Positions 8,338 through 62,768 of a stretch of DNA of 64,000 nt are shown one piece after another; within the stretch, counting starts at the first letter, position 1; each line of letters opens with the position of its first letter. Where the stretch lies: NCBI GenBank assembly GCA_963981015.1, contig CAXCCG010000002.1:8291-72290 (forward strand), in the 5' to 3' direction. Origin of the DNA: an uncultured Gammaproteobacteria bacterium (GTDB lineage: Bacteria; Pseudomonadota; Gammaproteobacteria; GCF-002020875). The position numbers and the translations under genes were made by a program. The notes beneath the pieces are model-generated. The model was not told where the DNA came from. It made no database searches and saw only the letters and a program-made list of their open reading frames with translations.

Positions 8338-9672
8338 CTACTCGCCGGCAATACTCATCTGTTCAATCAAAATAGAGCCTACCTGTATATTGCCTCTGGG
8401 ATCGATATCTGCGCCTGATTCAACAATTGAACCAAACATCTCTTTCAGATTACCCGCAATGGTGATTTCATCGACCGGGTAGGCGATCTCTCCACCCTCT
8501 ACCCAGAAACCTGCAGCACCACGCGAGTAGTCACCGGTAATGGTGTTAACCCCTTGCCCCATCAATTCGGTAACCAACAACCCTGTCCCCATTTTCTTCA
8601 ATAGCCCCTCTTGATCCAGCGTCCCGTGGGTCATTCTCAAGTTACGCACACCTCCGCCATTACCGGTGGTCTGCATCTCCAGGCGGCGCGCAGAATAGCT
8701 GTCCAGCACATAACTGGACAGGACCCCATCGGTCACAAAATTTTGAGCACGTGTAGCCACCCCGTCACTATCAAAAGGGGCACTGGCTGAGGCCCGCTTC
8801 AACAATGGCTCTTCGTAGATGGAAATCTCTTGAGGAAAAATAGGTTTCCCTAAATGGTCGAGCAAAAAAGTGGCTTTACGGTAGAGGTTTCCACCTCGAA
8901 TCGCCCCAATCAAGTGCCCTAATAACCCCCCTGCAATGGTTGCATCAAACAGGACCGGCACCTGGCAGGTCATCCCTTTTCGACTATCGAGTCGATCCAC
9001 TGCCCGCTGTGCTGCACGCCGGCCAATCTCTGCCGCATCTCCCAACTGTTCCGGGTCACGCGCCGAGCTATACCAGTAATCTCGCTGCATCTCATCAGCC
9101 CCCTGGGTCTGGGCGATCACTGAACAGCTGATTCCGTGCCGAGTCGCATCGTACCCGGATAGAAAACCGTTGCTGTTCCCATAGAACCGAATTGAGTGGT
9201 GGCTACTGACAGAACCCCCTTCTGAATTGACAATCCGTGCATCATAATCCAGTGCCGCCTGTTCACAACGCTTGGCCAGCTCCACACTCTCCTCCACCCC
9301 TGTAGACCAAGACTGGCTCAGCTCCAGATCAGGAAACTCTGTTGCCAACTGCTCAGGATCTGCCAGCCCTGCATAAGGGTCTTCCTGGGTGTAACGTGCA
9401 ATATCACAGGCCGAACGCACCGTCTGTTGCACCGCTTGCGGTGAAAAGTCACTGGTACTCGCGGTCCCTTTGCGGTTTCCAAAATAGACCGTAACCCCCA
9501 TACCGCGATCTTTATGGTGTTCAATCGTCTCCACGTCACCCATGCGCACTGAGGTGGTATACCCCTGATCCACCTGACTACCCGCCTCAGCGGCTGTTGC
9601 ACCCTGGCGCTTTGCTTCATCCAGAATCTGTTGTGTGAGTGTTTCCAGTAACTTCTGCTCTTGATCGATCAT
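8338..9672 (-). CDS. pmbA: Metalloprotease PmbA (TldE)
   Basis: 444 aa, collinear similarity to E. coli PmbA ([44 protein letters not shown]). Overlaps tldD by 4 bp. Confidence 0.88.
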
Positions 9673-11111
9673 ACTTCTGTCCCCCCTACGGTTAATTCAC
9701 TCACTTTTAACGTAGGTTGACCAACCCCAACAGGGACACTTTGCCCCTCTTTACCACACACACCAATCCCCGAATCGAGCTTAAGATCATCTCCCACCAT
9801 ACAGATATTCGACATCACCTCCGGGCCATTGCCTATCAAGGTGACCCCCCGCAGCGGCTGTTTGATCTGCCCTTTCTCAATGAGATAGGCCTCATTGGCT
9901 GAAAAGACAAATTTACCTGAGGTGATATCAACCTGCCCTCCCCCGAAATTTACCGCAAAAATACCACGCTCAACAGAAGCAATCATCTCCTCACGGGTGT
10001 GCTCACCCGGCAACATATAGGTGTTGGTCATTCGAGGCATCGGTAAATGCGCGTAGGACTCTCTGCGACCATTACCCGTTGAGGCCCCACCCATCAATCT
10101 ACCATTCACTTTATCTTGCATGTAACCCTTCAAAATTCCATTTTCAATTAATGTAGTGCTCTGTGTAGGGGTCCCCTCATCGTCAATATTAAGCGATCCA
10201 CGTCGCCCCTCCATCGCGCCATTATCCACTACGGTACAGAGTGGGTTGGCAACCTGTTCACCGATGCGCCCAGAAAATGCCGAAGTTCCCTTACGGTTAA
10301 AGTCACCCTCTAACCCATGCCCCACAGCCTCATGCAGCAACACACCAGGCCAGCCATTTCCAAGCACTACTTCCATATTCCCTGCGGGAGCATCCTCTGC
10401 CTCCAGGTTCACCAGCGCCTGCCGAACGGCCTCTTTGGCTGCCGCCTCAGCACGCCCCGAAACAAACAGTAAAGAGAGGTCTGAGCGCCCCCCAAAGCCG
10501 TAGGAACCCGTTTCTCTACGCCCCCCCTGCTCTACGATCACAGAGACGTTGAGACGTACAAGCGGACGGACATCTGCCGCCAAGGTAGCATCACTACCCG
10601 CAACCAGTACCACATCATAGGCTGCCGTCAGACTCGCCATCACCTGTATCACCCTGGGGTCTGCTCCCCGTGCCCACTGATCCAGGTTTTGCAACAGCTC
10701 AACTTTCTTCTCTGCCGTCACTGATTGCAAAGGGTTCTCTGCGGGGTAAAGAGAGCCTCCAGAGTCCTTCGCAGCTGCTACCCTGACCTCTCCCGCCTGC
10801 CCGCTACTGGAGATAATGCGTGCCGAACTCGCAGCCTGCATCAATGATGCTGCACTCATCTCATCTGAATAGGCAAAACCGGTCTTTTCACCCTGTACCG
10901 CTCGCACCCCCACCCCAGAATCGATATCGTAACTTGCATCACGCACTACCCCATCTTCCAGCGACCAGTACTCATGGGTACTTTGCTGAAAATAGAGGTC
11001 AGCATAATCCATACCTCGCTCCATAATATGGTGCAACGTGTTCTGGATCTCTTGCTGTGAAATCCCTCCGGGTACGAGTAGCTGATTTGTTGCCAACTCC
11101 AAATGGTTCAT
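9669..11111 (-). CDS. tldD: Metalloprotease TldD
   Basis: 480 aa with the [11 protein letters not shown] zinc motif. Confidence 0.9.
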
Positions 11112-11251: not shown

Positions 11252-14200
11252 TCAAGGGTATTCTGGCTCAAATACAGGGGCACTCACTTTTCTAATCTCT
11301 TCGAGTTGTGGATCGTCCCACTGGCCTGTCAGAGTATATCGTGTCAAGGCAATCTCATCCTCACTAAACAGTTTCTGGTAGAGCAACACCACCGATCCCA
11401 CTACAGCACCTGCCGGCCCTGCCAACAGCGCCCCTGTTGCAGGTAGCGTTTCAGAGATTTTCGGGCTCACCGCAACAATCTGATCATAATCCTGTGCAAC
11501 AATCCCGGTTCGACCCTCCACTTTAATCTTGGCTGCCGGACCGTCCAGTACAAGATTACGTGTATGAGCGTTTCCATCCAACAGGCTAAAGGTGCCGTAA
11601 ATGGTATCAAACGGAAACCCCTGATCGGTCAGGTCTGAAAAATCGAGCGTTAGGCGGCGCACCAACGTATGGATTCCCAACAAGCCGAAAACTCTACCAA
11701 TCCCCTGATCAACATCCTTCAACTGCCCTTTCTCGACAGAGAGCTCCAGCTCCCCCTCCATTGTGCTCAAGGAGAACTCGGTCGGACGGTCAGGCCACTC
11801 TGCCTTCACATGTATCGAGCTCTTGCCCCGATCAATATCTCCCCCATAACCGAACAGTGAGAGGATTGACCCCAACTGATCCCCGTACAGGTTGATATTG
11901 AATTTGGAGATCGGTTTTCCCTCTCTCTGTAACCAACTCCCCTGTGCAGAGACATTCATCACATCCGACTTGAGCACCACATCATCAAAAAACAGGCCAC
12001 TCTTCGTAGAGTGTGCCTGCAGTGCCAGGGTACCAAAATCGATACCATTAATGACCGTTTTCTGACTCGACAGATCCATTGCAGGCATTTTTGACGGATC
12101 AAACTCAACACGCTGACTCTGCACCACTACAGCACTATCTTCCTCCATTCCGGAAACCTCTTCCCCCAGCTGCAGGTGACTCAGGTCAACCACCCACTTC
12201 TCTGCCGAATCATGCGGCACCAAGATACTTCCTTCAATCTGTTCACTACTGAGTTCCACATGGATCGATTGCTGCTCTCTACGCTCCACCTTCAACACAA
12301 GCTGATCCAGTTTTTGCCCAAACAGGCTCGCTCTATCTGCTGTCAATAATAGATGCCCGAAGCGAACACTATTCAACCCATGATTGACCGCCCCCTCCTG
12401 CCGCATCAATACCGACAGATCATACCAGGCCCCCAAATCAATCTCCTCCAGCGCCCCAATCAATTCCAGGCCATCACGCAGCTCACCCGCCGGCAAGGTC
12501 TGCTCTCGATCTCCGAAAAAAAGACGCCCTTTCCACGGTGCTGCTGCCTTGCCTTTGTAGAGGGTGGCATGTAGATGTTCCGGCATCGAGACCTGCATAC
12601 TTTCAACCTCTCCGGAACGTACTTTCATCGACAGCGTCGCAGGCCATCGAGCCTCAGCACTTTTATTAAAGGGTTCTGGTGTATTTAATTGAACGCCCTG
12701 CAACTCAGAATAGAGATGAATATCGATATCTTCCCTCTGAATTTTGAGGCGCCCACTCCACTCTGTTTTACTTTCTGATTGAAACAGCGGGGCCTTCATC
12801 TCTGCCAGACCGAACCAATGCTCTAAAGCAGCCCCCTGAAGCGCCCCCTCCAAACCAATCACCACCTCCGGTTGCTGTTCAGTTTCTGAGGTAAATGCGG
12901 TAATCAGGACAGGCCCACCCAACATGACCCCTTGAACACCCTCTATCATCACTCCATCATGGTTAAACTCAACATTCCCTTTCAGCTGATCAATCTGAAG
13001 ATCCAGTGCAGCAACATTCAGTTGATTATCATGCAACTCAACTCGTCCATCGACCTGCAGCGGACTCTCATCAACAGGGATCACAACATCCAACTCCAGC
13101 AGAGCATAGCCGGACATGGTCACCACAGAGTTCAGCTGTCTTGCCTGGGCGCTTAGGGGGGTATTTTCGAGTGTGCGAAGCAGTTTGGGACTCTCACTGA
13201 CCAACTGTCCATGCACCTCAAACGGCCCATCTACAATCTTGTCACTATGGATAGAGATATTGTGGATCGGATGGCCATCCAGCTTTCCCTCCTTCAATTT
13301 TGCGCGCATCGCTCCATTGTTAAAGTGAATTTCTGCCTGACTATGGGTCACCGTTGGCCACTCATCGGCATACTTCAGATAGAGATCCTGTACTTGTAAA
13401 TCTGCCTGAAACAGCCCTTCACCCTGCTCAAACGGGAACTGATTCAGCGCTCCTTTGAGCTTAATTTTTCCATCAATCAATTTACCGGAGAGTAGTGATT
13501 CATTTAGCCAGCCAACTAATTCCGGCCTCAACTGGCGTTCAGGTAATTGCTGAATGAGATCGGCAATACGCTGTACCTGAATATGGGCATTAACATCCAG
13601 AAAGGGGGACTGCCCCCCCCCTGGTAGCAGCAACTGCCCTCCTCCCTGCAAGCGCAGCGCACCAATCTCACCTTCAATACCACGAAAGGAGAGCAACAGT
13701 GCTCTTGAGCGTCTTCTCCAACTGACCAACCCTTGCTCTAGCGTCAACTGTTGAGGATCTGGATAATAGTGCTGAAGCGAGGCAAATATGGGCTGATTAG
13801 CCGGCATAAAGAACCCCTCCTGTTCATTGAGATGGAGTTTTCCATTGACCCCCGCCACACCCAGCCCCGCCGCCTGCTTCACCCCTTGCACAGAGATATT
13901 ACTCAACACCATTTTGGATTCAATCTGATTAAAGAGACTCTCTTTATTCGGGTAGGAGCGAAACTTCACATCATGCAAATCACCGGAAACCAGCGCCCCA
14001 CTCTCGCCGTGCATGACCGTAGCATAGAGTCCTGAGAGCGCGGGGGAAGGGACCAGACGGATACGGTCAACTGCCCCCAATATCAGCTCCTGACCCGTTT
14101 TGTCCTGCAGATATTTGACCAATGCCGAGGTTGGATGGCTCTGCTTATCCGACTCTCCACCCCATGCCAGTTTCTCCATTTGCAAGCGCCACGCAACCTC

Positions 14201-15127
14201 TCCCTCTCTCTTCCAGTGGAACTCCCCTACTTTCAAACCCGGTTCATCCTTGAACGCCTCGTCCCGCCGCAGAGAAGCCCGTCCCTTTTCCAACTTCCCG
14301 GAGAGCCACTCCCCCCAAAATTCAATATGGCCCGTCCCCTGGGCCAGACCTTTCATCTGGTTGGCTTCGCCACCAATCAGGGTAACCAAATGGGTCGAAG
14401 GGGCTTCAAGATACATCAGCCCATCCCAACCATTTTCACTCAGCAGATCACCAAACCACTCCAGCTTGAGTGTAACGGGTGAAGGGTTCTCTCCATCCAG
14501 CACCAAGGTTCCCGTTGCCTGATGGCGATAACCTGAGTTGATCCAATCGAAATGAATATCTGCTAATTTCCACTGTAATCCGCTTTCACTTCCCTCTCTC
14601 TGTTCTTGTAACAACTGCAGTGTTGCATTCTCAACAACCACACTTGGTTGCCTCAATAACCAGGAGAGGAGAACAGGCATATTACCCTCCTCTGCTGTAT
14701 TGATTTGTGCCATCGCAAGAATGGATTGAAATTGATGCTCGAATGCTATCGAAGGGTTACGCAGCAGAATGCCGGTAGATATCAGCTCTCCTGCACTGAG
14801 TGAGTGCAGCAGGTCAATCTTCAAGCTTCCACCAGCCAGCGTAACCTGAGCACTACCTCCCCCCTCTTTCTGCAGGCTGACACCAACCACTTCAATCTGT
14901 AAAAACCGACCATCCAGCTGTGCAGTGACCCCCTCAAACTCAATCGGCACACCCGTTTCTGCCTGCAGCCAATCTCTGATCTCTTGCTTATAAAAAGGCA
15001 GTGCCGGAAGAGAGAGGCGTAGCAGTATCACCAACACAGCCACAACCACTAACCCTGTTGAACACAGTATCCAGAACGTACCCCAAAGTGAACGTAAAAA
15101 TTGCTGGCTAGACGGGTACAACATCAA
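11252..15127 (-). CDS. yhdP: YhdP-family (AsmA-like) inner-membrane envelope protein
   Basis: 1291 aa with an N-terminal TM anchor. It sits between rng and tldD exactly as in E. coli (rng-yhdP-tldD). Confidence 0.8.
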   Translation of the reverse strand: MMLYPSSQQFLRSLWGTFWILCSTGLVVVAVLVILLRLSLPALPFYKQEIRDWLQAETGVPIEFEGVTAQLDGRFLQIEVVGVSLQKEGGGSAQVTLAGGSLKIDLLHSLSAGELISTGILLRNPSIAFEHQFQSILAMAQINTAEEGNMPVLLSWLLRQPSVVVENATLQLLQEQREGSESGLQWKLADIHFDWINSGYRHQATGTLVLDGENPSPVTLKLEWFGDLLSENGWDGLMYLEAPSTHLVTLIGGEANQMKGLAQGTGHIEFWGEWLSGKLEKGRASLRRDEAFKDEPGLKVGEFHWKREGEVAWRLQMEKLAWGGESDKQSHPTSALVKYLQDKTGQELILGAVDRIRLVPSPALSGLYATVMHGESGALVSGDLHDVKFRSYPNKESLFNQIESKMVLSNISVQGVKQAAGLGVAGVNGKLHLNEQEGFFMPANQPIFASLQHYYPDPQQLTLEQGLVSWRRRSRALLLSFRGIEGEIGALRLQGGGQLLLPGGGQSPFLDVNAHIQVQRIADLIQQLPERQLRPELVGWLNESLLSGKLIDGKIKLKGALNQFPFEQGEGLFQADLQVQDLYLKYADEWPTVTHSQAEIHFNNGAMRAKLKEGKLDGHPIHNISIHSDKIVDGPFEVHGQLVSESPKLLRTLENTPLSAQARQLNSVVTMSGYALLELDVVIPVDESPLQVDGRVELHDNQLNVAALDLQIDQLKGNVEFNHDGVMIEGVQGVMLGGPVLITAFTSETEQQPEVVIGLEGALQGAALEHWFGLAEMKAPLFQSESKTEWSGRLKIQREDIDIHLYSELQGVQLNTPEPFNKSAEARWPATLSMKVRSGEVESMQVSMPEHLHATLYKGKAAAPWKGRLFFGDREQTLPAGELRDGLELIGALEEIDLGAWYDLSVLMRQEGAVNHGLNSVRFGHLLLTADRASLFGQKLDQLVLKVERREQQSIHVELSSEQIEGSILVPHDSAEKWVVDLSHLQLGEEVSGMEEDSAVVVQSQRVEFDPSKMPAMDLSSQKTVINGIDFGTLALQAHSTKSGLFFDDVVLKSDVMNVSAQGSWLQREGKPISKFNINLYGDQLGSILSLFGYGGDIDRGKSSIHVKAEWPDRPTEFSLSTMEGELELSVEKGQLKDVDQGIGRVFGLLGIHTLVRRLTLDFSDLTDQGFPFDTIYGTFSLLDGNAHTRNLVLDGPAAKIKVEGRTGIVAQDYDQIVAVSPKISETLPATGALLAGPAGAVVGSVVLLYQKLFSEDEIALTRYTLTGQWDDPQLEEIRKVSAPVFEPEYP

Positions 15128-16580
15128 ATTGTTCTGTCGTGTAGAAGGTCTCTACCTGCAGCCGGACTGGTTTACCGATGAACTCTTCCAGCTCAGCAAG
15201 ACTGCTCGACTCCTCATCCAGTAATAGATCAGTAATCTCCTGCGCTGCCAGAACCAGAATTTCTCTGGCATCTTCAAACTGTCGAGATTCGCGAATAATT
15301 TCACGGAAGACCTCATAACAGACAGTCTCCGGGGTTTTCAGGTAACCACGCCCTTCACAGGTTGGACAGGTCTGACACAGTACATGCTCCAGGCTTTCAC
15401 GGGTTCTTTTACGGGTCATTTCCACCAACCCCAGCGAAGAGACTACGCTGATATGGGTCCGCGCATGATCTTGATCCAGACACTTCTGTAGCAAACGCAT
15501 TACCTGCTGACGGTGCTGCTCATCTTCCATATCAATCAAGTCAAGAATAATGATCCCGCCCAGGTTTCGCAGCCGTAACTGACGTGCAATCGCCTGCGTT
15601 GCCTCCAAATTGGTCTTGAAGATGGTCTCTTCCAGGTTATGGTGCCCCACAAAAGAGCCGGTATTGACATCAATGGTGGTCATCGCCTCGGTCTGGTCGA
15701 TAATCAGATAGCCCCCTGATTTCAGCGGCACCTTTCGCTGCAGTGCTTTCTGTATCTCATCCTCCACAGAATAGAGGTCAAAGATCGGGCACTCTCCCGG
15801 ATAATACTCCACCCGAGAGGCTAGCTCCGGATTGAAACGGGCGGCAAAATCACGACACTTCTCCCAGCTACGTTTCGAGTCAATTCTAAGCCGCTCCACA
15901 CTATCCTTGAGCTGATCTCGAATGATGCGCAGCTCCAGCGGTAGGTCACTGTGGACCAGTGAACGTGATTTAAGCTGTTTACCACTCTCCTGAATCGATG
16001 CCCAGATCTTATAGAGCAATTTTGCTTCATGCAGCAGATCCTCTTGCGGAATTCCCTCCCCGGCCGTGCGCACAATAAAACCACCATACCCCCCACCGGC
16101 AACTGCAGTCTGGATCATTGTCCTCAAACGTTCACGTTCCTCCTCCTCTTCAATACGCTGCGATACCCCCATACATTGCACCATCGGCATAAACACCAGA
16201 TAGCGCGAGGGGATTGAGACCTGCATAGTCAACCTCGCTCCTTTGGTTCCCAATGGATCTTTCACCACCTGTACCAACAGCTCTTGCCCATCAGAGACCA
16301 GGTCGGTGATCTGCAGAGTCTCCTGTTCACACTCAATCTCCTCTTTCACATGCTGCGGGATAATATCCGAAACATGGAGAAAAGCAGCCCGCTCTAGACC
16401 GATATCGACGAACGCAGCCTGCATTCCAGGTAACACACGACTCACCTTTCCGTTATAGATATTGCCCACAATACCAAGGTGATTATTTCGCTCGATATAG
16501 ATCTCCTGCAACACCCCATTCTCCACCAATGCAGAACGGGTCTCTCGCGGAGTCACGTTAATCAGAATCTCTGTACTCAA
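15108..16580 (-). CDS. rng: Ribonuclease G
   Basis: 490 aa. S1 domain N-terminus (NIYNGKVSRVLPGMQAAFVDIG), RNase E/G catalytic core. Synteny maf-rng-yhdP. Confidence 0.88.
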   Translation of the reverse strand: MSTEILINVTPRETRSALVENGVLQEIYIERNNHLGIVGNIYNGKVSRVLPGMQAAFVDIGLERAAFLHVSDIIPQHVKEEIECEQETLQITDLVSDGQELLVQVVKDPLGTKGARLTMQVSIPSRYLVFMPMVQCMGVSQRIEEEEERERLRTMIQTAVAGGGYGGFIVRTAGEGIPQEDLLHEAKLLYKIWASIQESGKQLKSRSLVHSDLPLELRIIRDQLKDSVERLRIDSKRSWEKCRDFAARFNPELASRVEYYPGECPIFDLYSVEDEIQKALQRKVPLKSGGYLIIDQTEAMTTIDVNTGSFVGHHNLEETIFKTNLEATQAIARQLRLRNLGGIIILDLIDMEDEQHRQQVMRLLQKCLDQDHARTHISVVSSLGLVEMTRKRTRESLEHVLCQTCPTCEGRGYLKTPETVCYEVFREIIRESRQFEDAREILVLAAQEITDLLLDEESSSLAELEEFIGKPVRLQVETFYTTEQFDVVPV

Positions 16581-17161
16581 AGTAGCTGCACTCCCGCATG
16601 CTGTAGTAGCTGTGACGTTTCATAGAGCGGCAACCCCATTACCCCAGAGTAACTGCCTTGAAGCTGCTGGACAAAGATAGCACCCTGTCCCTGAATTGCA
16701 TATCCACCCGCCTTGTCCTGTGGCTCCCCACTCGCCCAGTATGCACGCTGTTCTGACGTGGTAATTTCACGAAAGGTGACCTGACTGACACTTAATGCGG
16801 TCTGTAGCCCTGTATCAGAGATCAGCGCAATCGCACTCATCACCTCATGCATACCACCACTCAGCAACTCCAGCATTGCCATCCCCTCTGTCTCTGAAGC
16901 GGGCTTTTGTAATATATTCTGTTGATGGACCACAATGGTATCTGCCCCCAATACAGGATAACGGTTGAGCTGTTCCTGCTCTTTCCAAATAGTACTTGCC
17001 TTCTCTTCAGCCAGCCGTAATACAGCCTGTTGTGGCGACTCATCCGCAATTGTTTCATCAATATCAGCCACCGCTATGCGGTAGCGAACACCAATCTGAG
17101 TCAATAGCTCTGAACGCCTTGGAGAGGCTGAGGCGAGAATAATGTGTGGCTGCAAATCCAT
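16577..17161 (-). CDS. maf: Maf-like nucleoside triphosphate pyrophosphatase
   Basis: 194 aa, N-terminus ILASASPRRSELL. Confidence 0.85.
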   Translation of the reverse strand: MDLQPHIILASASPRRSELLTQIGVRYRIAVADIDETIADESPQQAVLRLAEEKASTIWKEQEQLNRYPVLGADTIVVHQQNILQKPASETEGMAMLELLSGGMHEVMSAIALISDTGLQTALSVSQVTFREITTSEQRAYWASGEPQDKAGGYAIQGQGAIFVQQLQGSYSGVMGLPLYETSQLLQHAGVQLL

Positions 17162-17209
17162 CGGCTGATTTTACCTCAATACCGCCTCCTGCTCGGATAC
17201 AATCTGGGG

Positions 17210-17683
17210 TTAATCGCTACGGTGGTAGGGGTGATGATTAACCACACTCCAAGCACGGTAAAGCTGCTCTGAGAGCACCACCCGAACCAGCGGATGGGGA
17301 AATGTGAGCGCCGATAGAGACCAGCGCTGGTCTGCCCGCTGCAGACACTTCGCTGAAAGCCCATCAGCCCCACCCACCAAGAGCGAGACACCACCACCGG
17401 TATGCATCCACCTCTCCAGTTGAGTCGCCAGTTTTTCTGTTGTCCAGGTTGCACCTTGTACATCCAGTGCAACCACTTGATCACCTTTGGGGATTGCCGC
17501 CAACATCCGTTTTCCCTCTTGTTCGACCCAGCGCTGTGGAGAGCCGCTACGCCCCCGTTTCTCAGCCTCAATCTCAACCAACGCCAAAGAACACTCGCGG
17601 GGCATTCTACGGGCATACTCGGCATACCCTTGCTCAACCCAAGCGGGCATCTTGCGTCCTACGGCAATTAAGGTGATTTTCAT
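17210..17683 (-). CDS. rlmH: 23S rRNA (pseudouridine1915-N3)-methyltransferase RlmH
   Basis: 157 aa, near-collinear with E. coli RlmH (SLSALTFPHPLVRVVL.EQLYRAWS...HPYHR). Confidence 0.92.
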   Translation of the reverse strand: MKITLIAVGRKMPAWVEQGYAEYARRMPRECSLALVEIEAEKRGRSGSPQRWVEQEGKRMLAAIPKGDQVVALDVQGATWTTEKLATQLERWMHTGGGVSLLVGGADGLSAKCLQRADQRWSLSALTFPHPLVRVVLSEQLYRAWSVVNHHPYHRSD

Positions 17684-17727
17684 TCAGGAGTTGCTGAAAA
17701 GTGCGCGAAAATTTGTGTAGCGGTACG

Positions 17728-18066
17728 CTACTCTTCGCGCTTGAAGTCCGTCCAGAATTTTTCCAGATTGTAGTAGTCACGGGTCTCCGGCAACATCACA
17801 TGAACCACCACCTCTCCCAGATCAACCAATACCCACTCTCCAGAATCTTCACCTTCTCGCCCCAAAGGCTGGTAATCCGCTCTCTTCGCCTCCATCGCAA
17901 CATTCTCGGCTAAAGATCGTACATGACGATTGGAGGTTCCACTGGCAATCACCAGTTTGCTGGTAACATCCGTCATCTCGGATACATCAACCACAGTAAT
18001 CTCATTTCCCTTCAACGCCTCGAGGGCATCGACCGCCAACTGTTCCAACTGATCTACACTTAACAT
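17728..18066 (-). CDS. rsfS: Ribosomal silencing factor RsfS
   Basis: 112 aa, DUF143/RsfS motifs. Synteny nadD-rsfS-rlmH. Confidence 0.9.
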   Translation of the reverse strand: MLSVDQLEQLAVDALEALKGNEITVVDVSEMTDVTSKLVIASGTSNRHVRSLAENVAMEAKRADYQPLGREGEDSGEWVLVDLGEVVVHVMLPETRDYYNLEKFWTDFKREE

Positions 18067-18075
18067 GTGTTTACT

Positions 18076-18726
18076 CTACTCTTCTAATGGGTATTGATTA
18101 ATAACAGATGCGCGAATTGTATCAGGCAATAGAAAGCGTGGGTCCTCACCTTGTGCAACCATTTCCCGAATCACCGTTGCAGAGATCTCCAACTGCGTCA
18201 CCGGCAGTAGCAAAATTCTCCCCCCTTGCTGCTGCGGTAGCTGGTAGAGATCCGTTACCTGATTACTTTCTCGTGCAGCCAACAACTCTGCAACACGCCC
18301 CTGTTGCGGCCTCTCAAAACCGGGACGGTGAGTGACTACAATATGGGCAAGACTCAGCAGTTCATCCCAGCGGTGCCAACTCTCAACCTGCAGAAAGGCA
18401 TCCATCCCCAAAATCAGACAGAGTGGGCGCTGTGAAAATGATGTAACCAGTGACTCTAGTGTCACCACCATCCAGGAGGGAGTGTCACGCTCCACCTCGC
18501 GCAGATCAACCACAAACTGCGGCACCTCTGCAGCCACCTGCTGCAGCCACTCTACACGCTGCTCCAAAGAGGCCAACGGTTGTGATCGATGTACTGGAAT
18601 CTTACTGGGGATCAGCCGCACATGATCCATCCCCAACTGTTCACACACCTCCAGTGCAGGACGCAGATGTCCGAAGTGGACCGGATCAAAGGTGCCGCCC
18701 AGAATTCCAATGGGTCGCATCGCCAC
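18076..18726 (-). CDS. nadD: Nicotinate-nucleotide adenylyltransferase
   Basis: 216 aa with the GGTFDPVHFGH motif. Confidence 0.9.
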   Translation of the reverse strand: MAMRPIGILGGTFDPVHFGHLRPALEVCEQLGMDHVRLIPSKIPVHRSQPLASLEQRVEWLQQVAAEVPQFVVDLREVERDTPSWMVVTLESLVTSFSQRPLCLILGMDAFLQVESWHRWDELLSLAHIVVTHRPGFERPQQGRVAELLAARESNQVTDLYQLPQQQGGRILLLPVTQLEISATVIREMVAQGEDPRFLLPDTIRASVINQYPLEE

Positions 18727-18743: not shown

Positions 18744-18828
18744 GAGAATAGACGAAATAACCATTCGACAAAATTTGTCTCAAATCAGCTTTCCCTCGCT
18801 ACGACTTCTATTCCCGGACAAGCTCCTA
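18744..18828. repeat. Partial/degenerate copy of the palindromic repeat element (right-arm type). It supplies or abuts the proA TAG stop.
   Basis: tgtctcaaatcagctttccctcgctacgacttctattcccggacaagctcCTA is about 92% identical to the right arm of the copy at 245-292. Confidence 0.55.
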
Positions 18829-20079
18829 ACGGATATGACCATCTCCCAGTACGATGAATTTCTGCGAGGTGAGTCCCTCCAGCCCTACAGGACCACGTAC
18901 ATGAATCTTGTCGGTACTGATACCTATCTCCGCGCCCAGCCCATACTCAAAACCATCGGCAAAGCGGGTGGAGGCATTGACCATTACAGAGCTGGAGTCT
19001 ACTTCCGCCATAAAGCGTCGCGCACGTGCATAACTCTCGGTGACGATTGATTCTGTGTGACCTGAACTGTGCTGGTGGATATGGTCCATCGCAGCGTCGA
19101 TATCTGTCACCACACGAATGGAGAGTACCGGAGCCAGATACTCTTCATCCCAGTCTGCCTCGGTTGCTACAACCACGTCCGCAAGGATCTTTTGTGTCTG
19201 TTCACAGCCACGTAGCTCTACCCCCTCACTTTGGTACTGCGCTGCCAGTGGAGGCAGCACCTCTGCAGCAATACCCTCTGCTACCAACAGTGTCTCCATC
19301 GCATTGCAGACCCCGTAACGGTGGGTTTTTGCATTAAAGGCGATATCAATCGCCTTCTGCTGATTCGCCTGATCATCAATATAGACATGACAGATCCCGT
19401 TCAGGTGTTTAATCACCGGAATACGGGCACTCTCGGAAATACGTTCAATCAACCCCTTACCACCGCGCGGGATAATCACGTCAACATAGCGACTCATGGT
19501 AATCAACTCACCGACGGCTTCACGATCTGCCGTCTCCACCACCTGCACCGCATCAGAGGGAAGCCCCGCCTCTGTCAACCCCTGATGGATCAGTTTGGCA
19601 ATCGCCTGATTGGAGTTGAATGCCTCGGAACCACCACGAAGGATTGCCGCGTTACCCGATTTGAGACAGAGTGCTGCCGCATCTGCAGTCACATTGGGGC
19701 GCGATTCGTAGATGATACCGATGACCCCGAGAGGAACCCGCATTTTACCGACCTGAATACCGGAAGGACGATAGTTGAGACCAGAGATCTCACCCACAGG
19801 GTCCGGCAGCGTCGCAATCTGACGCAACCCTTCAGCCATGCCACTGACCCGCTCCTCATTTAACGCCAGACGATCTAGCAGTGCAGCATCGAGTCCATTT
19901 GCTTTACCGGCATCCAGATCTTTCTGGTTCTCTGCCAACAGCGCACTCATTGACTGCTCCAACAGAGCTGCGGTGATCTCCAGTGCACGATTTTTATCTG
20001 TAGTCTCTGCACGAGCCATTGCACGACTCGCACTGCGGGCCTGCTCACCCACCTGTTGCATATACTGTTTGATGTCCAT
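18826..20079 (-). CDS. proA: Gamma-glutamyl phosphate reductase
   Basis: 417 aa aldehyde dehydrogenase-fold ProA. Position between nadD and holA as in Pseudomonas. Confidence 0.93.
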
Positions 20080-20157: not shown

Positions 20158-21204
20158 CTATAGCTTAGCATGGATAGGGAGTGAGGTTGGATTGGAGAGG
20201 TTAGAGGTCGCCTTCAGAACCAGATCTTCCAAACCACTCCAGGGGTCACCTTCCCCCATCCCTTTACCGGCACGATCTATTTCACCCGCTCGGCGTATCA
20301 ACTGGTAAATCTGTTGCTGTTTAAGTCGATTCAGGCCGGAGGTGAAGAGGGGCAACCTCCGCTTCCAGAGAGGCTGAGGGATATAGTCCAGCGGCTTGTG
20401 TGCTGCCAGACGTTGCAGGTTGCCTATAGCCGCCAGTTCACGCAGGTCTCTGACGATGGCCCAGAGTATAATCTGGATGGCGACGCCTTCCTCCTTCAGA
20501 CCATAAAGAATATGTAGTGCGCGCGCACGCTCACCACCAAGGATGGCATCCGCCAGTTGAAAGGGATCATAACGTGCGCTATCGGCTACAAGGTTCATCA
20601 CCATGGTCTCATCGACCTGATCTCCCTTGTTGGTGAGAAGAGAGAGTTTTTCAATCTCCTGTACCGCTGCCAGTAGATTGCCCTCGATCCGCTCTGCCAC
20701 CAGTGCCGCCGCACCGGGAGTAGCGTTAATACCAGCTACCCGCATCCGTTGCATAATCCAGTTGGGGATTTGACGCAACTCCATAGGCCAGATCTGTACC
20801 GTTACCCCAGCCTTTTCAATCGCTTTGAACCATTTGGCTCGCTGTGAGGCTCCATCCAGTTTTCCGCTACGGATAACCAATATCTTGTCATCCGGTGGAG
20901 AGTGACTCCACTCTGTGAGCATAGCCCCCCCCTCTTTGCCCGGTTTGCCGGTGGGGAGCCTGAGATCGATAATCTTCTTTTCTGCAAACAGAGAGAGTGC
21001 CGCCCCCTCTTGCTGCAGGTCCGACCAGTGGAACCCCGCGCCTACGGAGTAGAGAGCACGCTCTTCAAAGCCGGTCTGTCGTGCGGCCTGCAGTATTTGG
21101 TCGGCAGCCTCTTGCAGCAACAGTGGCTCATCACTACTGATCAGATAAATTGGAGCCAACGCCCGCTTGAGATGGTTCGCCAGTTGATCTGGACGAAGCT
21201 TCAT
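20158..21204 (-). CDS. holA: DNA polymerase III subunit delta
   Basis: 348 aa. Synteny leuS-lptE-holA. Confidence 0.85.
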   Translation of the reverse strand: MKLRPDQLANHLKRALAPIYLISSDEPLLLQEAADQILQAARQTGFEERALYSVGAGFHWSDLQQEGAALSLFAEKKIIDLRLPTGKPGKEGGAMLTEWSHSPPDDKILVIRSGKLDGASQRAKWFKAIEKAGVTVQIWPMELRQIPNWIMQRMRVAGINATPGAAALVAERIEGNLLAAVQEIEKLSLLTNKGDQVDETMVMNLVADSARYDPFQLADAILGGERARALHILYGLKEEGVAIQIILWAIVRDLRELAAIGNLQRLAAHKPLDYIPQPLWKRRLPLFTSGLNRLKQQQIYQLIRRAGEIDRAGKGMGEGDPWSGLEDLVLKATSNLSNPTSLPIHAKL

Positions 21205-21218
21205 GAGTCGAAGGCTCT

Positions 21219-21713
21219 CTATTTCTGACGCAAACTACGCATCAGGTCTCGTGTCACTTCACGCACCATTCGCTGACGCAGGTGCTTCTCTTCCTGACTC
21301 TTGCCCAGCAGTTGGTTGGCGCTATACTGATAATTTTCACGCTGCTTCAAGGTACCTTCACGCAATACGGTACCCTGCTTGTTACTCAGTTCCCAGTCCA
21401 ACTGATAGCTCAACTGATATTCGCTTACTTTTCCATCACTACCGACAGTTGCCACCTGACGAGAAAAGGACTCATTACTGAGCAACAGTATTGCTGAAGC
21501 CTCTTTCTCTGATCGTGCAGTATCTCCATTACTGTTACGAATGGCGTTTCCAACTGAATGGGTCAAGCCACTGGATACCCCCTGCCCCGCAATCCATGTA
21601 GAGGACATCTCATTCAGCAGTGAGACTTCACCACGCAGATGGAAGCCGCACCCTTGCAACAGCGTGAGGGCCAGAAGAAGAGGAGGCAATAAAACTGTTC
21701 TAATTGATTTCAT
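21219..21713 (-). CDS. lptE: LPS-assembly lipoprotein LptE
   Basis: Signal peptide plus lipobox LLQGC. Synteny after leuS. The start was trimmed to MKSIRTVLL. Confidence 0.75.
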   Translation of the reverse strand: MKSIRTVLLPPLLLALTLLQGCGFHLRGEVSLLNEMSSTWIAGQGVSSGLTHSVGNAIRNSNGDTARSEKEASAILLLSNESFSRQVATVGSDGKVSEYQLSYQLDWELSNKQGTVLREGTLKQRENYQYSANQLLGKSQEEKHLRQRMVREVTRDLMRSLRQK

Positions 21714-21788
21714 AAAGGTACCTGTCATGGTTTAGGTGCGCCCATTAAAATGCGCCTCTTTAAATACATTTTGCGTATGTTTTGACAT

Positions 21789-24254
<2,466 letters not shown>

Positions 24255-24393: not shown

Positions 24394-24894
24394 ATGTCCA
24401 ATGAAAAAGAGTCCACACTGATCCGCCTCTATCACACTCTTCGTGATCAGCTACAGGAGATCGCAGAGGAGGGGAGAGAGCAACTACCTTCACTTCAGGA
24501 ACTGATTGCAGAGACTCGAGAGAAGAGTGCCGAACTGAGTGAGCTGACCCGGGAAGAGGTGGATGAGGTGAGTCGCTACCTACACCGAGATCTGGAGGCT
24601 ACAGGGAACTATCTGGCAGAGACTGGTGAGGATCTGGGGCGCTGGTTTCACATGGAGGAGGCGCTGGTTGAAGATCGTCTGAAAGAACTATTTACTCAAC
24701 TGGCTGACCCAACACGAATCGCACTGGAACGGCTTGATGCGGACGCGCGTGCCTCACAGAATTATCTTAGCGGTGAGGTGATTGGTATGGGACAACTCAA
24801 ATGTAGTGCGTGTGAACACACCCTGCAGTTTAATCAGACCTCTATCATCCCCAGATGTCCTGAGTGTAACGGGACTCTTTTTAAGCTCTCCTGA
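24394..24894 (+). CDS. DUF1451-family zinc-ribbon protein
   Basis: 166 aa, an acidic helical protein with a C-terminal C-x2-C ... C-x2-C (KCSACEH...PRCPECNG). Preceded by an AGGAG SD. Confidence 0.55.
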   Translation: MSNEKESTLIRLYHTLRDQLQEIAEEGREQLPSLQELIAETREKSAELSELTREEVDEVSRYLHRDLEATGNYLAETGEDLGRWFHMEEALVEDRLKELFTQLADPTRIALERLDADARASQNYLSGEVIGMGQLKCSACEHTLQFNQTSIIPRCPECNGTLFKLS

Positions 24895-24914
24895 ACCGAG
24901 ACCAGGTTTCCAGA

Positions 24915-24945
24915 AAGCAGAAGTCGTAGTGAGGACAAGCTCCTA
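24915..24945. repeat. Short fragment of the palindromic repeat family that abuts the TAG stop of the histidine kinase gene
   Basis: gaagtcgtag...ggacaagctcCTA shares the core of the 18776-18828 copy. Confidence 0.4.
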
Positions 24946-25557
24946 TGGAATCCACAGCAGTAGCTGTGCGCCACCCAACTGCTCACTGGGCTGTAATTGA
25001 ATCGAGCCGGTTTGACCTCTTCTGCGATGTGCCTTGGCAATCTCCTCCCCGAGTCGAAGCCCGACTCCAACCCCTTTCATCTCACTGAGATCAACCTGCT
25101 TACTACCCAGCCCTTTTCCATTATCGTCGATAGAGAAGCAGATGCACCGGTCCTGCTCTTCGGCTCCAAGTACAATTCGGCTCGCCCCGGCATGAATCGC
25201 ATTGAGTATCCCGTGCGCCAACACACTGACGATGAGTGGTCTGTCATAAAACCCCATTGCTGCTGCAGAACAGTCTATTTCAAGCTCGATTCCCGATGCC
25301 TTTAACAGCACCTCTTCTCGACCTGCTGCCTCTTGCAGTGCATCAGACAACGGAAGGTCATAGCGATCAACCCGCAGCTCCTGCTGCTCCAGCCGAAAAA
25401 GGGTGAGCAGTGCAATCAGGTCATCATGGATCTGCCGGCTACTCTGCTGCATCTCCAGCTTCTTTTCATCTTGACTAGAGTCTATTTGCTGCATCAAGAC
25501 CCCTAACCGATTTTTCAGGTCATGCAGGTGATTCGCAACCAGTTCAGACCACTGCAT
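24943..25557 (-). CDS. Soluble (no TM, no sensor domain) histidine kinase
   Basis: 204 aa. H-box HDLKNRLGVL, then N/G1/G2 boxes of the HATPase_c type (DDNGKGLG, GVGVGLRL). Confidence 0.65.
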   Translation of the reverse strand: MQWSELVANHLHDLKNRLGVLMQQIDSSQDEKKLEMQQSSRQIHDDLIALLTLFRLEQQELRVDRYDLPLSDALQEAAGREEVLLKASGIELEIDCSAAAMGFYDRPLIVSVLAHGILNAIHAGASRIVLGAEEQDRCICFSIDDNGKGLGSKQVDLSEMKGVGVGLRLGEEIAKAHRRRGQTGSIQLQPSEQLGGAQLLLWIP

Positions 25558-25559
25558 AA

Positions 25560-27269
25560 TCAGCTTTTTGGCAATTTATGTACAAACTGCTCAAACAGGT
25601 CTTGTAGTTTTTCGTATCTCCGGTCCTGATTCTCTGGAGGAATCCTGCTCAGACAATCATCAACCATGCCAATTCGTTCCTCTGTTACCCCCTGCTTCAC
25701 AATCAACCCCATAATCGCCTGTGCTGCATTGAGGTTGACCACACGATTCCCTGGCAAGCGATCTGCTGCCTTATAGAGAATTTCAACCGCCTCCCCTAAA
25801 TTTCCATTTTTGTAGTAACCGACCCCTTCGCTATTCAGTTTCAACACCTCTTTACGCGCAGAGTTGATCTCATCCCGCTCCTCTCCCTCGATTCCAATCT
25901 GTTCAGCCAGATCAAAAATCTCCTCATGCACTTGGGTGTCATCATGGTTGGTCTGGATCACTTGACTCAGGATCTCCTTGACCATATTTTTATTACTTTC
26001 ACGCCGTTTTTCACTCTTCTGCTTGGCCACCTTGGCGCTCAACCCCTCCAACCCTTCTGAGCGAAAATCCAACCCCTGGCTATTTTCAGTAATTTGAGTG
26101 GCTAACTTCAGTGCTGTTTGGGTATCAATGGAACCCGTTCGCTTTTTGAAACTTTCACTGGCCCGCTGCAATGACTTATCTGCCTCACGGGTATTTCCCA
26201 TATGACCATAGGTTTGATTCTCCTGCAATGCCGTCTCAATTTGAGCACCTGGGTCACCGGCAAAATTTTGTCGAGCTTTCCCCAGATTTTTCAGTGCCTT
26301 ATTGGGTTCACCACACTCCAACAATACCGCAGAATATCCAGTGTAGTCGGAGACTTCACGAAACAGTGAGTAGGTTCCCAGGCGCACCGTCTTCTCATAC
26401 GCACTGGTTGCCACCTCCAGATCGTTATTGGATTCCGCAACGGTTGCCAACAGTTTTTGTCTACGCAGCACTTTAGGGGACTGCCCGACCGCATCTTCAA
26501 GAATTTTCTGTGCCTGAGCCCCTTCACCCATCTTCACCAGTGCTTTGGCCATCCAGTCACGTGCCACATTGTAGGCATCATTCGCCTCCAGTACCTGCTT
26601 AAAATAACTCACCGACTCTTCATACTGCCCCTGTTGAAAGAGCACCCTCCCTCGCCCCAGCAAAGCCCAGAGCAGTTCACGATCCTTCAGGACATCATCA
26701 TAGATTCCTAGCGCATGGTCAAAGTTTCTGGTTTTTTCCAGAATTTCCGCCTTGATTCGCAGCAACTCCATGGGGGTTTCGGTACGTTTTGCAATTAATT
26801 GATTCAGGCAACTGAGTGCACGCTTGGTACTCTTCATCTCCAAAGCACGATCCACCTGAACCAGCCCCTCTTTCTCTGCCGCGAGGCGAAACAGTCGATC
26901 TGCCAAAACGGTACGGGAAAAAGGCTTGGTCAGATAATCATCCGGTCGATTCTCAACTACACTTAACACCATGGTACGTGCCGTTTCAGCGGTGATCATG
27001 ATAAAAATCGTGGAGTACCCCAGGATTTGTCGTGTACGACTCTCTTCCAGAACCTGCTGCCCATCTTTACCCTCTCCAAGATGAAAATCACAGAGCACCA
27101 CATCATAACGCTTACTTTCCAATAACGTTAGCGCATCTTTACCATTGGATGCGGTATCAATCTGATGACCGGGCACCCCCCCTTCGCTGATCATCGCAAC
27201 CAGAGAGGTGCGATAGTTACCAAAGTCGTCGACAACCAGAAAGTGAAAATCTTTTAGAGAATAGTCCAT
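25560..27269 (-). CDS. Response regulator with an N-terminal REC domain fused to a roughly 430-aa TPR-repeat region
   Basis: REC signature residues (VVDDF, phospho-acceptor D in VVLCDFHLGEG, T in MITAE, K in LTKPF). The remainder is helical repeats. There is a 2-bp gap to the kinase gene. Confidence 0.7.
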   Translation of the reverse strand: MDYSLKDFHFLVVDDFGNYRTSLVAMISEGGVPGHQIDTASNGKDALTLLESKRYDVVLCDFHLGEGKDGQQVLEESRTRQILGYSTIFIMITAETARTMVLSVVENRPDDYLTKPFSRTVLADRLFRLAAEKEGLVQVDRALEMKSTKRALSCLNQLIAKRTETPMELLRIKAEILEKTRNFDHALGIYDDVLKDRELLWALLGRGRVLFQQGQYEESVSYFKQVLEANDAYNVARDWMAKALVKMGEGAQAQKILEDAVGQSPKVLRRQKLLATVAESNNDLEVATSAYEKTVRLGTYSLFREVSDYTGYSAVLLECGEPNKALKNLGKARQNFAGDPGAQIETALQENQTYGHMGNTREADKSLQRASESFKKRTGSIDTQTALKLATQITENSQGLDFRSEGLEGLSAKVAKQKSEKRRESNKNMVKEILSQVIQTNHDDTQVHEEIFDLAEQIGIEGEERDEINSARKEVLKLNSEGVGYYKNGNLGEAVEILYKAADRLPGNRVVNLNAAQAIMGLIVKQGVTEERIGMVDDCLSRIPPENQDRRYEKLQDLFEQFVHKLPKS

Positions 27270-27380
27270 TTCATACCCGTTACTTATGATCCCATCTCTC
27301 TATATTATCCCCCGGAGCCACACCTTATGTTAATTTAGAGGCTTGTCTAAGGTACCCCTGAACAAGTCATCTACGATATC

Positions 27381-28607
27381 TTATAAATTTTTAACAAACC
27401 AGCGTTTCATTCGTTCCCAGATACCGATTGATCCTCCATCCAGTAAGCCGCCATATTGCTGCCTGTTCTTCGCTGCATGAATCAGCAGCCCGACACCGGT
27501 TGCATGAACTGGAGTACGTACAATATCAATCATCCCCTCAATATTCTGTGGTGCCCCGAGACGGACCGGCTTATGGAAAATCTCCTCTGCCAGCTCAACC
27601 GCACCCTCCATCTTCGAGCTGCCACCGGTCAATACAATACCTGCATTGATCATATCCTCAAAGCCACTTCGGCGCAGTTCAGCCTGCACCAGGGTAAACA
27701 GCTCTTCATAACGGGGACCAACCACTTCTGCCAGCCCTTGTCGTGCCAATCTGCGTTCAGGGCGGTCCCCAATACTGGGAACAGCAACTTCTTCATTCGG
27801 GTCAACCAGTTCAGAAATCGCACAGGCATACTTCACCTTGATCTGTTCCGCATGGTGTGTCGGTGTACGCAGAAAGACTGCGATATCATTGGTTACCTGA
27901 TCACCCGCTACCGGAATCACCGCGGTATGGCGAATAGAACCTTCGGTAAAGACTGCAATATCGGTAGTCCCACCACCAATATCAATCATACAGACCCCCA
28001 GCTCTTTCTCATCTTCGCTCAGCACTGCATAGCTTGAGGCGAGTTGCTCCAGTACAACATCTTCTGCCTCCAGACCGCAAAGACGGATACATTTGACAAT
28101 ATTTTGCGCTGCACTGATTGAACCTGTGACAATATGGACCTTGGCCTCCAGACGGACCCCGGACATCCCCATCGGCTCATGGATCCCCTCCTGGTTATCA
28201 ATAATAAACTCCTGGGGGAGAGAGTGGATGATCTTCTGGTCTGCCGGTATAGCAATTGCTTTTGCCGCATCAATCACTCGATCTACATCGATGGCGGTCA
28301 CTTCCCGGGTACGGATCGCAATGATGCCGTGTGAATTCATGCCATGAATATGGCTGCCAGCGATACCCGCAGAGACCGATCCGATCTCACACTCCGCCAT
28401 TATCTCAGCCTCTTCTACTGCACGCTGAATCGACTTTACTGTCGATTCAATATTGACCACAACCCCCTTCTTCAGCCCTTTTGAAGGATGTGTTCCAATA
28501 CCCAGTATTTCCAGCTCGCCAGAGGGCTGCATAGCCCCAACAATGGCTGCAATTTTCGTAGTCCCGATATCAAGACCAACAATCAATTCATGCTCTTTTT
28601 TTCGCAT
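27381..28607 (-). CDS. ftsA: Cell division protein FtsA
   Basis: 408 aa, collinear with E. coli FtsA (LVVGLDIGT.K.AA.VG, GVCMIDIGGGTTDIAV, GIVLTGG). Confidence 0.93.
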   Translation of the reverse strand: MRKKEHELIVGLDIGTTKIAAIVGAMQPSGELEILGIGTHPSKGLKKGVVVNIESTVKSIQRAVEEAEIMAECEIGSVSAGIAGSHIHGMNSHGIIAIRTREVTAIDVDRVIDAAKAIAIPADQKIIHSLPQEFIIDNQEGIHEPMGMSGVRLEAKVHIVTGSISAAQNIVKCIRLCGLEAEDVVLEQLASSYAVLSEDEKELGVCMIDIGGGTTDIAVFTEGSIRHTAVIPVAGDQVTNDIAVFLRTPTHHAEQIKVKYACAISELVDPNEEVAVPSIGDRPERRLARQGLAEVVGPRYEELFTLVQAELRRSGFEDMINAGIVLTGGSSKMEGAVELAEEIFHKPVRLGAPQNIEGMIDIVRTPVHATGVGLLIHAAKNRQQYGGLLDGGSIGIWERMKRWFVKNL

Positions 28608-42256: not shown

Positions 42257-42546
42257 CAGTGAAGCACAACTCTCTGGGCTGCTTGCGGATAGTTCATTTT
42301 TAATTTAGCACGTGCATGGTCCTCTATTCGGGCCAGATTCCCCCAAGATGCCTCTTCCAGACGCAGTCGCCCCTGCTCTTCCAAACTCTGCTCATACTGT
42401 TTCTTGAGTCCCTGTAACGTAATGTAGAGCTGGACCTCTCGATGTTTAATGTAGATCACTCCAACAGCACTGCCTACGGTAAAAAGAATCAATAGCATTA
42501 TTAAGACCCCCTGCATCAAAGGACTATTTTCATACCAGACACTCAT
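42256..42546 (-). CDS. ftsL: Cell division protein FtsL
   Basis: 96 aa bitopic protein with a coiled-coil segment, between rsmH and ftsI. Confidence 0.75.
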   Translation of the reverse strand: MSVWYENSPLMQGVLIMLLILFTVGSAVGVIYIKHREVQLYITLQGLKKQYEQSLEEQGRLRLEEASWGNLARIEDHARAKLKMNYPQAAQRVVLH

Positions 42547-45557: not shown

Positions 45558-45610
45558 AAACAAGGTTGTCGGAGTACAAATACTCAAACATATTGTATGG
45601 AGAATTAAAA

Positions 45611-55118: not shown

Positions 55119-55144
55119 GCGATGAATTGACGGTAATCTGTGCG

Positions 55145-58302: not shown

Positions 58303-58334
58303 TACTCAGCTAAACAACCCTCTTGAAACTGCCT

Positions 58335-62760: not shown

Positions 62761-62768
62761 CTTTTCCT

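Follow-up and report, generated by a model that had tools for sequence, protein, structure and literature searches.

The minus-strand genes leuS–lptE–holA–proA–nadD–rsfS–rlmH–maf–rng–yhdP–tldD–pmbA of the window (the whole 64,000-nucleotide stretch of DNA analysed here) probably represent an intact, conserved housekeeping block. The direct adjacency of rlmH and maf within it is the usual order in the 'non-crown' orders of Gammaproteobacteria, rod-shaped cultured relatives included. Overall, the region combines ordinary synteny with one small lineage-specific deletion, that of lpoA at a separate locus. We give a probability of about 0.8 to the joint reading that the block is an ordinary conserved one, that the elongasome genes lie elsewhere in the genome and that lpoA was deleted separately.

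The DNA comes from a marine, uncultured sulfur-oxidising bacterium that is related to Candidatus Thiopontia (BS-GSO2 clade) and belongs to the 'non-crown' orders. Bacteria of the BS-GSO2/Thiopontia group are abundant uncultured sulfur oxidisers of oxygen-deficient seawater. By LeuS (70–71% identity), Thioalkalivibrio sulfidiphilus and Thiohalobacter sp. IOR34 are its closest relatives in culture. In a search of the contigs of GTDB species-representative genomes the best matches to the window Maf were only 50–57% identical, so that the representative of this species lacks the region or does not match it; the exact protein is present on 175 contigs. The genus includes at least one member with a genome of 1.58 Mb, and the lineage with the lpoA deletion includes small genomes. 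The GC content of the window is 51%; an origin from Neisseria, suspected from this value and the absent mre genes, was rejected for want of the DNA uptake sequence. The papers and supplements searched gave no information on mreB or morphology for Thiopontia, BS-GSO2 or GCF-002020875. Genes for FlgO, FlgM and flagellin are located at the right end of the window and just beyond it; they support a motile, non-coccoid cell weakly at best.

The gene order proposed by the first-pass annotation holds when the genes are assigned with NCBIfam models (Table 1), as does its gap of 48 bp, the rlmH stop codon ending at 17210 and the maf ATG lying at 17161. At its other end maf overlaps the start of rng by 4 bp, and no promoter-like or terminator-like site is predicted in the 48-bp spacer. 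The short spacer is compatible with one transcription unit and, taken with the lack of a predicted terminator and the 4-bp overlap, suggests co-transcription of rlmH, maf and rng. Use of an internal start would give an RlmH product of 146 amino acids. In tblastn searches with E. coli queries MreB, MreC, MreD, MrdA, MrdB, RlpA, DacA, LpoA and DiaA were absent from the window and 10 kb of each flank, a total of about 84 kb, or some 3–5% of a genome of perhaps 1.6–3 Mb. The sole matches in this sequence were, as expected, to the paralogues FtsA, FtsI and FtsW. The ftsI gene scores 294.6 bits against the mrdA model TIGR03423, under the 455-bit cutoff.

Table 1. Genes and spacer referred to in the text, in window coordinates, with the model or evidence behind each assignment.
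Feature	Position	Strand	Basis
pmbA	8338-9672	-	NF008006 / NF008268 (cited for the tldD and pmbA pair)
tldD	9669-11111	-	NF008006 / NF008268 (cited for the tldD and pmbA pair)
yhdP	11252-15127	-	TIGR02099, E=9e-168
rng (RNase G)	15108-16580	-	NF008689, E=1.9e-214
maf (Maf-family nucleotide pyrophosphatase)	16577-17161	-	TIGR00172, E=2.5e-50
rlmH-maf spacer, 48 bp	17162-17209	-	sequence read
rlmH (23S rRNA pseudouridine-1915 N3-methyltransferase)	17210-17683	-	NF000986, E=3.5e-68, full length
rsfS	17728-18066	-	TIGR00090
nadD	18076-18726	-	NF000839
proA	18826-20079	-	NCBIfam
holA	20158-21204	-	NCBIfam
lptE	21219-21728	-	NCBIfam
leuS	21789-24239	-	NCBIfam
ftsW, not rodA (the window's sole SEDS-family gene)	33855-35069	-	TIGR02614, 413.8 bits, vs rodA TIGR02210, 266.5 bits
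ftsI, not mrdA (the window's sole class B PBP gene)	40523-42256	-	FtsI/PenA-type models top-scoring
rsmI	45980-46825	-	NF011570, E=3e-95
yraN	46838-47221	+	NF009150 / NF008247 (cited for the yraN and dolP pair)
dolP	47265-47840	+	NF009150 / NF008247 (cited for the yraN and dolP pair)

The reference orders against which the junction had originally been judged are correct for E. coli. In E. coli K-12 and in Pseudomonas the genes run nadD-rsfS-rlmH-mrdA-mrdB-rlpA and mreB-mreC-mreD-yhdE(maf)-rng-yhdP-tldD, the flanking housekeeping genes having the same order and orientation as in the window. E. coli has them as two loci apart from each other, each with elongasome genes in place of the window's 48-bp spacer; it differs further in having cobC between nadD and rsfS and in lacking proA there. 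As a wider expectation, however, these orders are valid only for the Enterobacterales, Pseudomonadales and Oceanospirillales, and no relative examined outside these three orders has mre or mrd genes at the rlmH|maf site.

The closest cultured relatives carry the arrangement of the window. The order DUF1451|leuS-lptE-holA-proA-nadD-rsfS-rlmH-maf-rng-yhdP occurs exactly in both Thioalkalivibrio sulfidiphilus and Thiohalobacter sp. IOR34, with gene order and orientation identical to those of the window and maf directly after rlmH. They differ from it in a somewhat longer rlmH-maf spacer (about 120 and 330 bp by called genes) and in the region 5' of leuS, where the window has the end of the dcw cluster (ftsA and a response regulator with TPR repeats) and the two relatives have other genes. 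Species-representative genomes yielded 80 loci of Maf relatives; in 18 of them the order is nadD-rsfS-rlmH-maf-rng or rlmH-maf-rng and mreBCD is absent within 10 kb. These 18 are spread over at least eight further groups of Gammaproteobacteria, among them Spiribacter, Steroidobacteraceae, Methylococcaceae, Thiotrichaceae, an Escarpia endosymbiont and several MAGs, and their rlmH-maf spacers range from −8 to 94 bp except for a single one of 357 bp. The upstream order of proA, holA, lptE and leuS recurs in four loci (L097, L098, L019 and L004), and in two members of the Thiopontia family (L099 and L100) the block is identical except that maf is missing. The mreBCD-maf arrangement accounts for 60 of the 80 loci and is found in Pseudomonas, Stutzerimonas, Oceanospirillaceae, Pontibacterium and one or two MAGs.

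The nadD-rsfS-rlmH-maf-rng arrangement is thus ordinary synteny. The earlier claim that two conserved blocks had been fused, leaving the rod-shape genes missing from their expected site, does not survive the finding of the same order in the closest cultured relatives. Nor can the junction be taken as a sign of a non-rod cell, since known rods share it; the cells of Spiribacter, for example, are curved rods. Because rlmH-maf is standard in relatives that include such rods, two of the three loci reported as missing (mrdAB and mreBCD) are uninformative on cell shape. In 'non-crown' lineages the elongasome genes were not at the rlmH or maf sites, and the junction required no fusion, deletion or relocation in this lineage.

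Where such bacteria have an elongasome, its genes would as a rule be gathered in one mreB-mreC-mreD-mrdA-mrdB(-rlpA) operon at another site. This is the layout to be expected where maf and rlmH adjoin, and by extension in the source organism, which most probably keeps mreBCD-mrdAB outside the window. The placing of the Rod system elsewhere in rlmH-maf bacteria draws on the cell shape known for Spiribacter and on general background. A metagenome search with an MreB alignment gave at least 600 matches, those listed being an arbitrary sample; in 80 mreB loci among the matches listed mreB-mreC-(mreD)-mrdA-mrdB(-rlpA) was the commonest layout (33 loci), and mreBCD-maf-rng occurred in 14. No mreB locus in this arbitrary sample, among the matches listed, fitted the tetranucleotide profile of the window; the best correlation was r=0.66, as against 0.85–0.95 for same-genome controls. 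Between gammaproteobacterial orders MreB is 78–88% identical.

The third locus differs from its counterparts in other lineages. LpoA is reportedly an outer-membrane lipoprotein activator of PBP1a, and the initial observation that its gene is absent beside rsmI was correct: it is found neither in the window nor in an otherwise identically ordered locus from a family relative (L091), and is present in all four informative outgroups (L092, L093, L182 and E. coli). In the window rsmI is divergent from yraN-dolP, the starts of rsmI and yraN lie 12 bp apart, and the locus has neither lpoA nor diaA. An LppC gene (PF04348) occupies the position between yraN and rsmI on a 492-kb gammaproteobacterial MAG contig and in Methylophaga pinxianii, Tahibacter amnicola and E. 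coli. Compared with the canonical locus, in which rsmI is divergent from lpoA-yraN-(diaA)-dolP, the window shares the order of rsmI, yraN, dolP and the downstream glcD-like gene, but precisely lpoA is missing; diaA is missing too, as it is from the outgroup loci L092, L093 and L182. In the Thiopontia family lpoA has been cleanly deleted from the glcD-dolP-yraN-lpoA block opposite rsmI, a real but small and lineage-specific change that is separate from the rlmH|maf junction. In the same family ftsZ is found upstream of mraZ, not after ftsA, and maf has been lost in two members. Together with the lpoA deletion, these features make an unusual mode of growth possible.

The most far-reaching alternative is a real loss of the Rod system, in which mreBCD, mrdAB and lpoA would be absent genome-wide and an FtsZ-directed, divisome-only wall, like that of Neisseria or Moraxella, would give coccoid or ovoid cells. 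It is consistent with the absence of all these genes from the ~84 kb, with the deletion of lpoA from its conserved site and the move of ftsZ to the front of the dcw cluster, both in the Thiopontia family, with the small genome of at least one genus member and with the loss of other dispensable genes, such as maf, in relatives. We nevertheless consider it unlikely: the junction that formed its main argument is shared with rod-shaped relatives, the sequence covered is a small fraction of the genome, flagellar genes are present, and LpoA, an activator of a class A PBP, does not belong to the core of the Rod complex. Loss of MreB is, moreover, rare among free-living Gammaproteobacteria. The bolder version, that the Thiopontia/BS-GSO2 family lacks the whole Rod system as well as LpoA and grows by its divisome only, the move of ftsZ being part of a rewired division programme, is rather improbable; if true, it would describe a free-living, flagellated gammaproteobacterium without MreB.

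Two further explanations concern the origin of the junction itself. The flanking genes on both sides are as in E. coli, so the lineage could have descended from an ancestor with E. coli-like rlmH-mrdAB and mreBCD-maf loci, the blocks having been fused by recent deletions or translocations. This is very improbable, as the junction and more than 10 kb of flanking genes on each side are shared by the nearest cultured relatives and by many other families, which indicates that it long predates the lineage; the 48 bp also leaves no room for pseudogene remnants. The metagenomic assembly of the source raises the suspicion of a chimeric contig joined at the rlmH|maf boundary. We regard such an artefact as exceedingly improbable because the identical arrangement occurs on contigs from independent pipelines and different samples (ENA ERZ27237643, JGI 3300000216 from Saanich Inlet and NCBI GCA_018657305.1, contig JABHXJ010000158.1) and at 21 further similar places, giving 24 contigs in all, as well as in the isolate genomes of Thioalkalivibrio and Thiohalobacter.

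An ordinary conserved block, with the elongasome encoded elsewhere and lpoA deleted separately, remains the preferred reading, and it carries a caution. Expectations of synteny drawn from E. coli and Pseudomonas are not transferable to the deeper gammaproteobacterial orders, and the relatives of the organism itself are the standard by which a gene missing from its expected neighbourhood is to be judged. What is left as real signal, the lpoA deletion and the position of ftsZ upstream of mraZ in an ecologically important family of uncultured sulfur oxidisers, is modest, and the case would gain interest only if the organism lacked the Rod system as well. Transitions from rod to coccus by loss of the elongasome are said to have taken place in Neisseria meningitidis and Moraxella catarrhalis, Proteobacteria without mreBCD, pbp2 and rodA, and this is the scenario that the first-pass annotation had in effect proposed. 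In those cases close rod-shaped relatives keep the genes at the homologous sites, whereas the close relatives of the window organism also have no elongasome genes there, and the rlmH|maf junction is therefore not a deletion scar.

Nearly all genes of the window, named by NCBIfam scans of its large ORFs, lie on the minus strand, and the GC skew is below zero in every 2-kb window across 1-64000. The stretch as a whole appears to belong to a single replichore, on which its genes are co-oriented with replication. The rlmH stop is separated from the maf start by 48 bp, while maf and rng overlap by 4 bp. The first-pass annotation had described this gene order and spacer as a junction from which both elongasome loci (mrdAB and mreBCD) are missing, and had quoted the E. 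coli orders for reference; order and spacer are correct as written, and the reference orders agree with NC_000913.3. Searches by tblastn with E. coli MreB, MreC, MreD, MrdA, MrdB, RlpA, DacA, LpoA and DiaA (from NC_000913.3) over the window and the adjoining 10 kb of this organism on either side revealed no mreBCD, mrdAB, rlpA, dacA, lpoA or diaA, so that the absence of mrd and mre genes at the junction stands; the only matches are the expected weak paralogue ones to ftsA, ftsI and ftsW. The 48-bp spacer has no predicted terminator-like or promoter-like site. An assembly artefact can be rejected because the same arrangement recurs on independently assembled ENA, JGI and NCBI contigs.

Features of the window around the rlmH-maf and rsmI-yraN sites
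Feature	Coordinates	Strand	Basis or remark
dolP	47265-47840	+	divergent from rsmI
yraN	46838-47221	+	divergent from rsmI
rsmI	45980-46825	-	NCBIfam scan
rnpB, RNase P RNA gene	45610-45962	-	RF00010, 328 bits, full length
ftsZ	43966-45204	-	NCBIfam scan
dcw cluster, high to low coordinates		-	mraZ, rsmH, ftsL-position ORF, ftsI, murE, murF, mraY, murD, ftsW, murG, murC, murB, ddl, ftsQ, ftsA
Short ORF at ftsL position, putative	42256-42543	-	PF04999 FtsL at same position in family relative L091
ftsA	27381-28607	-	NCBIfam scan
Response regulator with TPR repeats, then histidine-kinase-like gene		-	after ftsA, before leuS
leuS	21789-24239	-	then lptE, holA, proA
nadD	18076-18726	-	NCBIfam scan
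rsfS	17728-18066	-	NCBIfam scan
rlmH	17210-17683	-	NCBIfam scan
maf	16577-17161	-	NCBIfam scan
rng	15108-16580	-	then yhdP, tldD, pmbA, murJ, ribF, ileS, lspA

Contigs of marine oxygen-deficient waters, 175 in all, encode the identical Maf protein; they include Saanich Inlet (JGI 3300000216) and the NCBI MAG GCA_018657305.1. The window's LeuS shares 82% identity with the Candidatus Thiopontia autotrophica protein and 79-89% with a group of MAG proteins labelled 'Gammaproteobacteria/Thiotrichales bacterium'; among cultured organisms, Thiohalobacter, Thioalkalivibrio sulfidiphilus and Methylophaga come nearest (70-71%). Ca. Thiopontia, the BS-GSO2 clade, comprises uncultured sulfur oxidisers of dysoxic or euxinic waters that encode rDsr and the Calvin cycle, and is placed in the GTDB order and family GCF-002020875 (PMC8359478; anchialine-cave study). 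Within Thiopontia, MAG sizes are 1.58 Mb for the type and 2.4-3 Mb for other members. The literature on the Thiopontia, BS-GSO2 or GCF-002020875 lineage yielded no morphology or mreB information. The window also encodes an N-acetylglutaminylglutamine amidotransferase for osmolyte synthesis (53334-55178), a weak SPOR-domain protein (55145-56035) and a type I secretion ABC transporter with a TolC-family outer-membrane protein (56215-60359). Two FlgO-family genes lie at its right end (62035-63826), with FlgM and a flagellin C-terminal-domain gene just past it (8794-9459 of fetched locus L088); the organism is probably flagellated.

Eighty loci around Maf relatives were fetched from species-representative genomes and their neighbours placed by tblastn. 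The order mreB-mreC-mreD-maf-rng is found in 60 of them (Pseudomonas, Stutzerimonas, Oceanospirillaceae, Pontibacterium and one or two MAGs), rlmH immediately precedes maf in 18, and two were uninformative. The 18 belong to Spiribacter, five Steroidobacteraceae, Methylococcaceae, Thiotrichaceae, the Escarpia spicata endosymbiont and several gammaproteobacterial MAGs; 15 have the full nadD-rsfS-rlmH-maf-rng order, several carry the entire leuS-lptE-holA-(proA)-nadD-rsfS-rlmH-maf-rng-yhdP-tldD-pmbA block of the window, and none has a tblastn-detectable mre gene within 10 kb. Since 16 of these 18 have rlmH-maf spacers of -8 to 94 bp (17 were measured, the other being 357 bp), the 48 bp of the window are typical. 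[quoted passage not shown] A junction common to non-coccoid bacteria is unusable as a sign of elongasome loss. It is real but ordinary: gammaproteobacteria of this part of the class have it as their standard gene order, and only by analogy with E. coli and Pseudomonas do the elongasome genes count as 'missing' from these sites.

A scan of metagenome contigs with an MreB alignment indicates where these genes may reside instead. Among the matches listed, 80 mreB loci forming an arbitrary sample, 33 have mreB-mreC-(mreD)-mrdA-mrdB, often with rlpA next in line, and mreBCD-maf-rng accounts for a further 14; a single five-gene mreBCD-mrdAB operon is thus the common alternative layout. A genome with such an operon elsewhere would lack mrdAB behind rlmH and mreBCD ahead of maf. 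The window's organism is not represented among the 80 listed loci by tetranucleotide correlation (best 0.66; same-genome controls reach 0.85-0.95 and Ca. T. autotrophica 0.88), although so arbitrary a sample is uninformative on absence. MreBs of different gammaproteobacterial orders are 78-88% identical to one another. To our knowledge, MreB loss is rare in free-living Gammaproteobacteria. Because of this rarity, the synteny common to rod-shaped relatives and the flagellar genes beside the window, the genome most probably carries an mreBCD-mrdAB operon elsewhere. True loss of the Rod system in the family is improbable. LpoA is an activator of PBP1a, a class A enzyme, and does not belong to the core of the Rod complex, so its loss is weak evidence on cell shape.

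The first-pass annotation had also noted that lpoA is absent next to rsmI, and the contexts of RsmI homologues bear this out. The family-level relative L091 (RsmI 68% identical) has petABC-sspAB-glcD-dolP-yraN <-> rsmI-ftsZ-mraZ-rsmH-ftsL-ftsI, ordered as in the window and likewise without LppC (LpoA) between yraN and rsmI. A more distant gammaproteobacterial MAG (L092) has yraN-LppC <-> rsmI-...-mraZ, Methylophaga pinxianii dolP-yraN-LppC <-> rsmI, and Tahibacter amnicola glcD-dolP-yraN-LppC <-> rsmI. As lpoA occupies the site in 4/4 informative outgroups (a fifth context, without yraN, was left out of the count) and is missing from both family members, its absence reflects either a clean deletion specific to the family or, with lower probability, a relocation. 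The rsmI and yraN starts are 12 bp apart, and neither lpoA nor diaA lies between rsmI and dolP, in contrast to E. coli (rsmI <-> lpoA-yraN-diaA-dolP). Since diaA is also absent from outgroup contexts, its absence here means nothing.

On the other side of rsmI, rnpB occupies most of the gap to ftsZ, which heads the dcw cluster upstream of mraZ (rsmI-rnpB-ftsZ-mraZ-rsmH). The rsmI-ftsZ-mraZ order recurs in L091; the outgroup L092 differs, a binding protein being encoded between rsmI and mraZ. The genes after ftsA (25560-27269) are the response regulator and the histidine-kinase-like gene, not ftsZ. The end of the dcw cluster adjoins the DUF1451|leuS block in the window species only (24394-28607, compared with loci L097-L100 of four relatives), a pattern suggesting that a rearrangement at species or genus level joined the two. 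In Ca. T. autotrophica and Thiohalobacter, miaB-phoH-ybeY-corC-lnt lies upstream of leuS; in the other relatives the genes there are unrelated.

In two family members, Ca. T. autotrophica and a related 'Thiotrichales bacterium', the block is otherwise the same, with rlmH followed directly by rng at spacers of 117 and 49 bp, respectively, from called gene coordinates (L099 16234-18294; L100 16356-18363); the site is again free of mre and mrd genes. Both have lost maf, which the window species keeps; this loss shows some erosion of the locus within the family. What genuinely remains of the finding is the lpoA deletion specific to this family, together with the relocated ftsZ and the maf loss in sister species. 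The junction itself is shared exactly with the two cultured organisms nearest to this one, Thioalkalivibrio sulfidiphilus and Thiohalobacter sp. IOR34, both of which have DUF1451 | leuS-lptE-holA-proA-nadD-rsfS-rlmH-maf-rng-yhdP.
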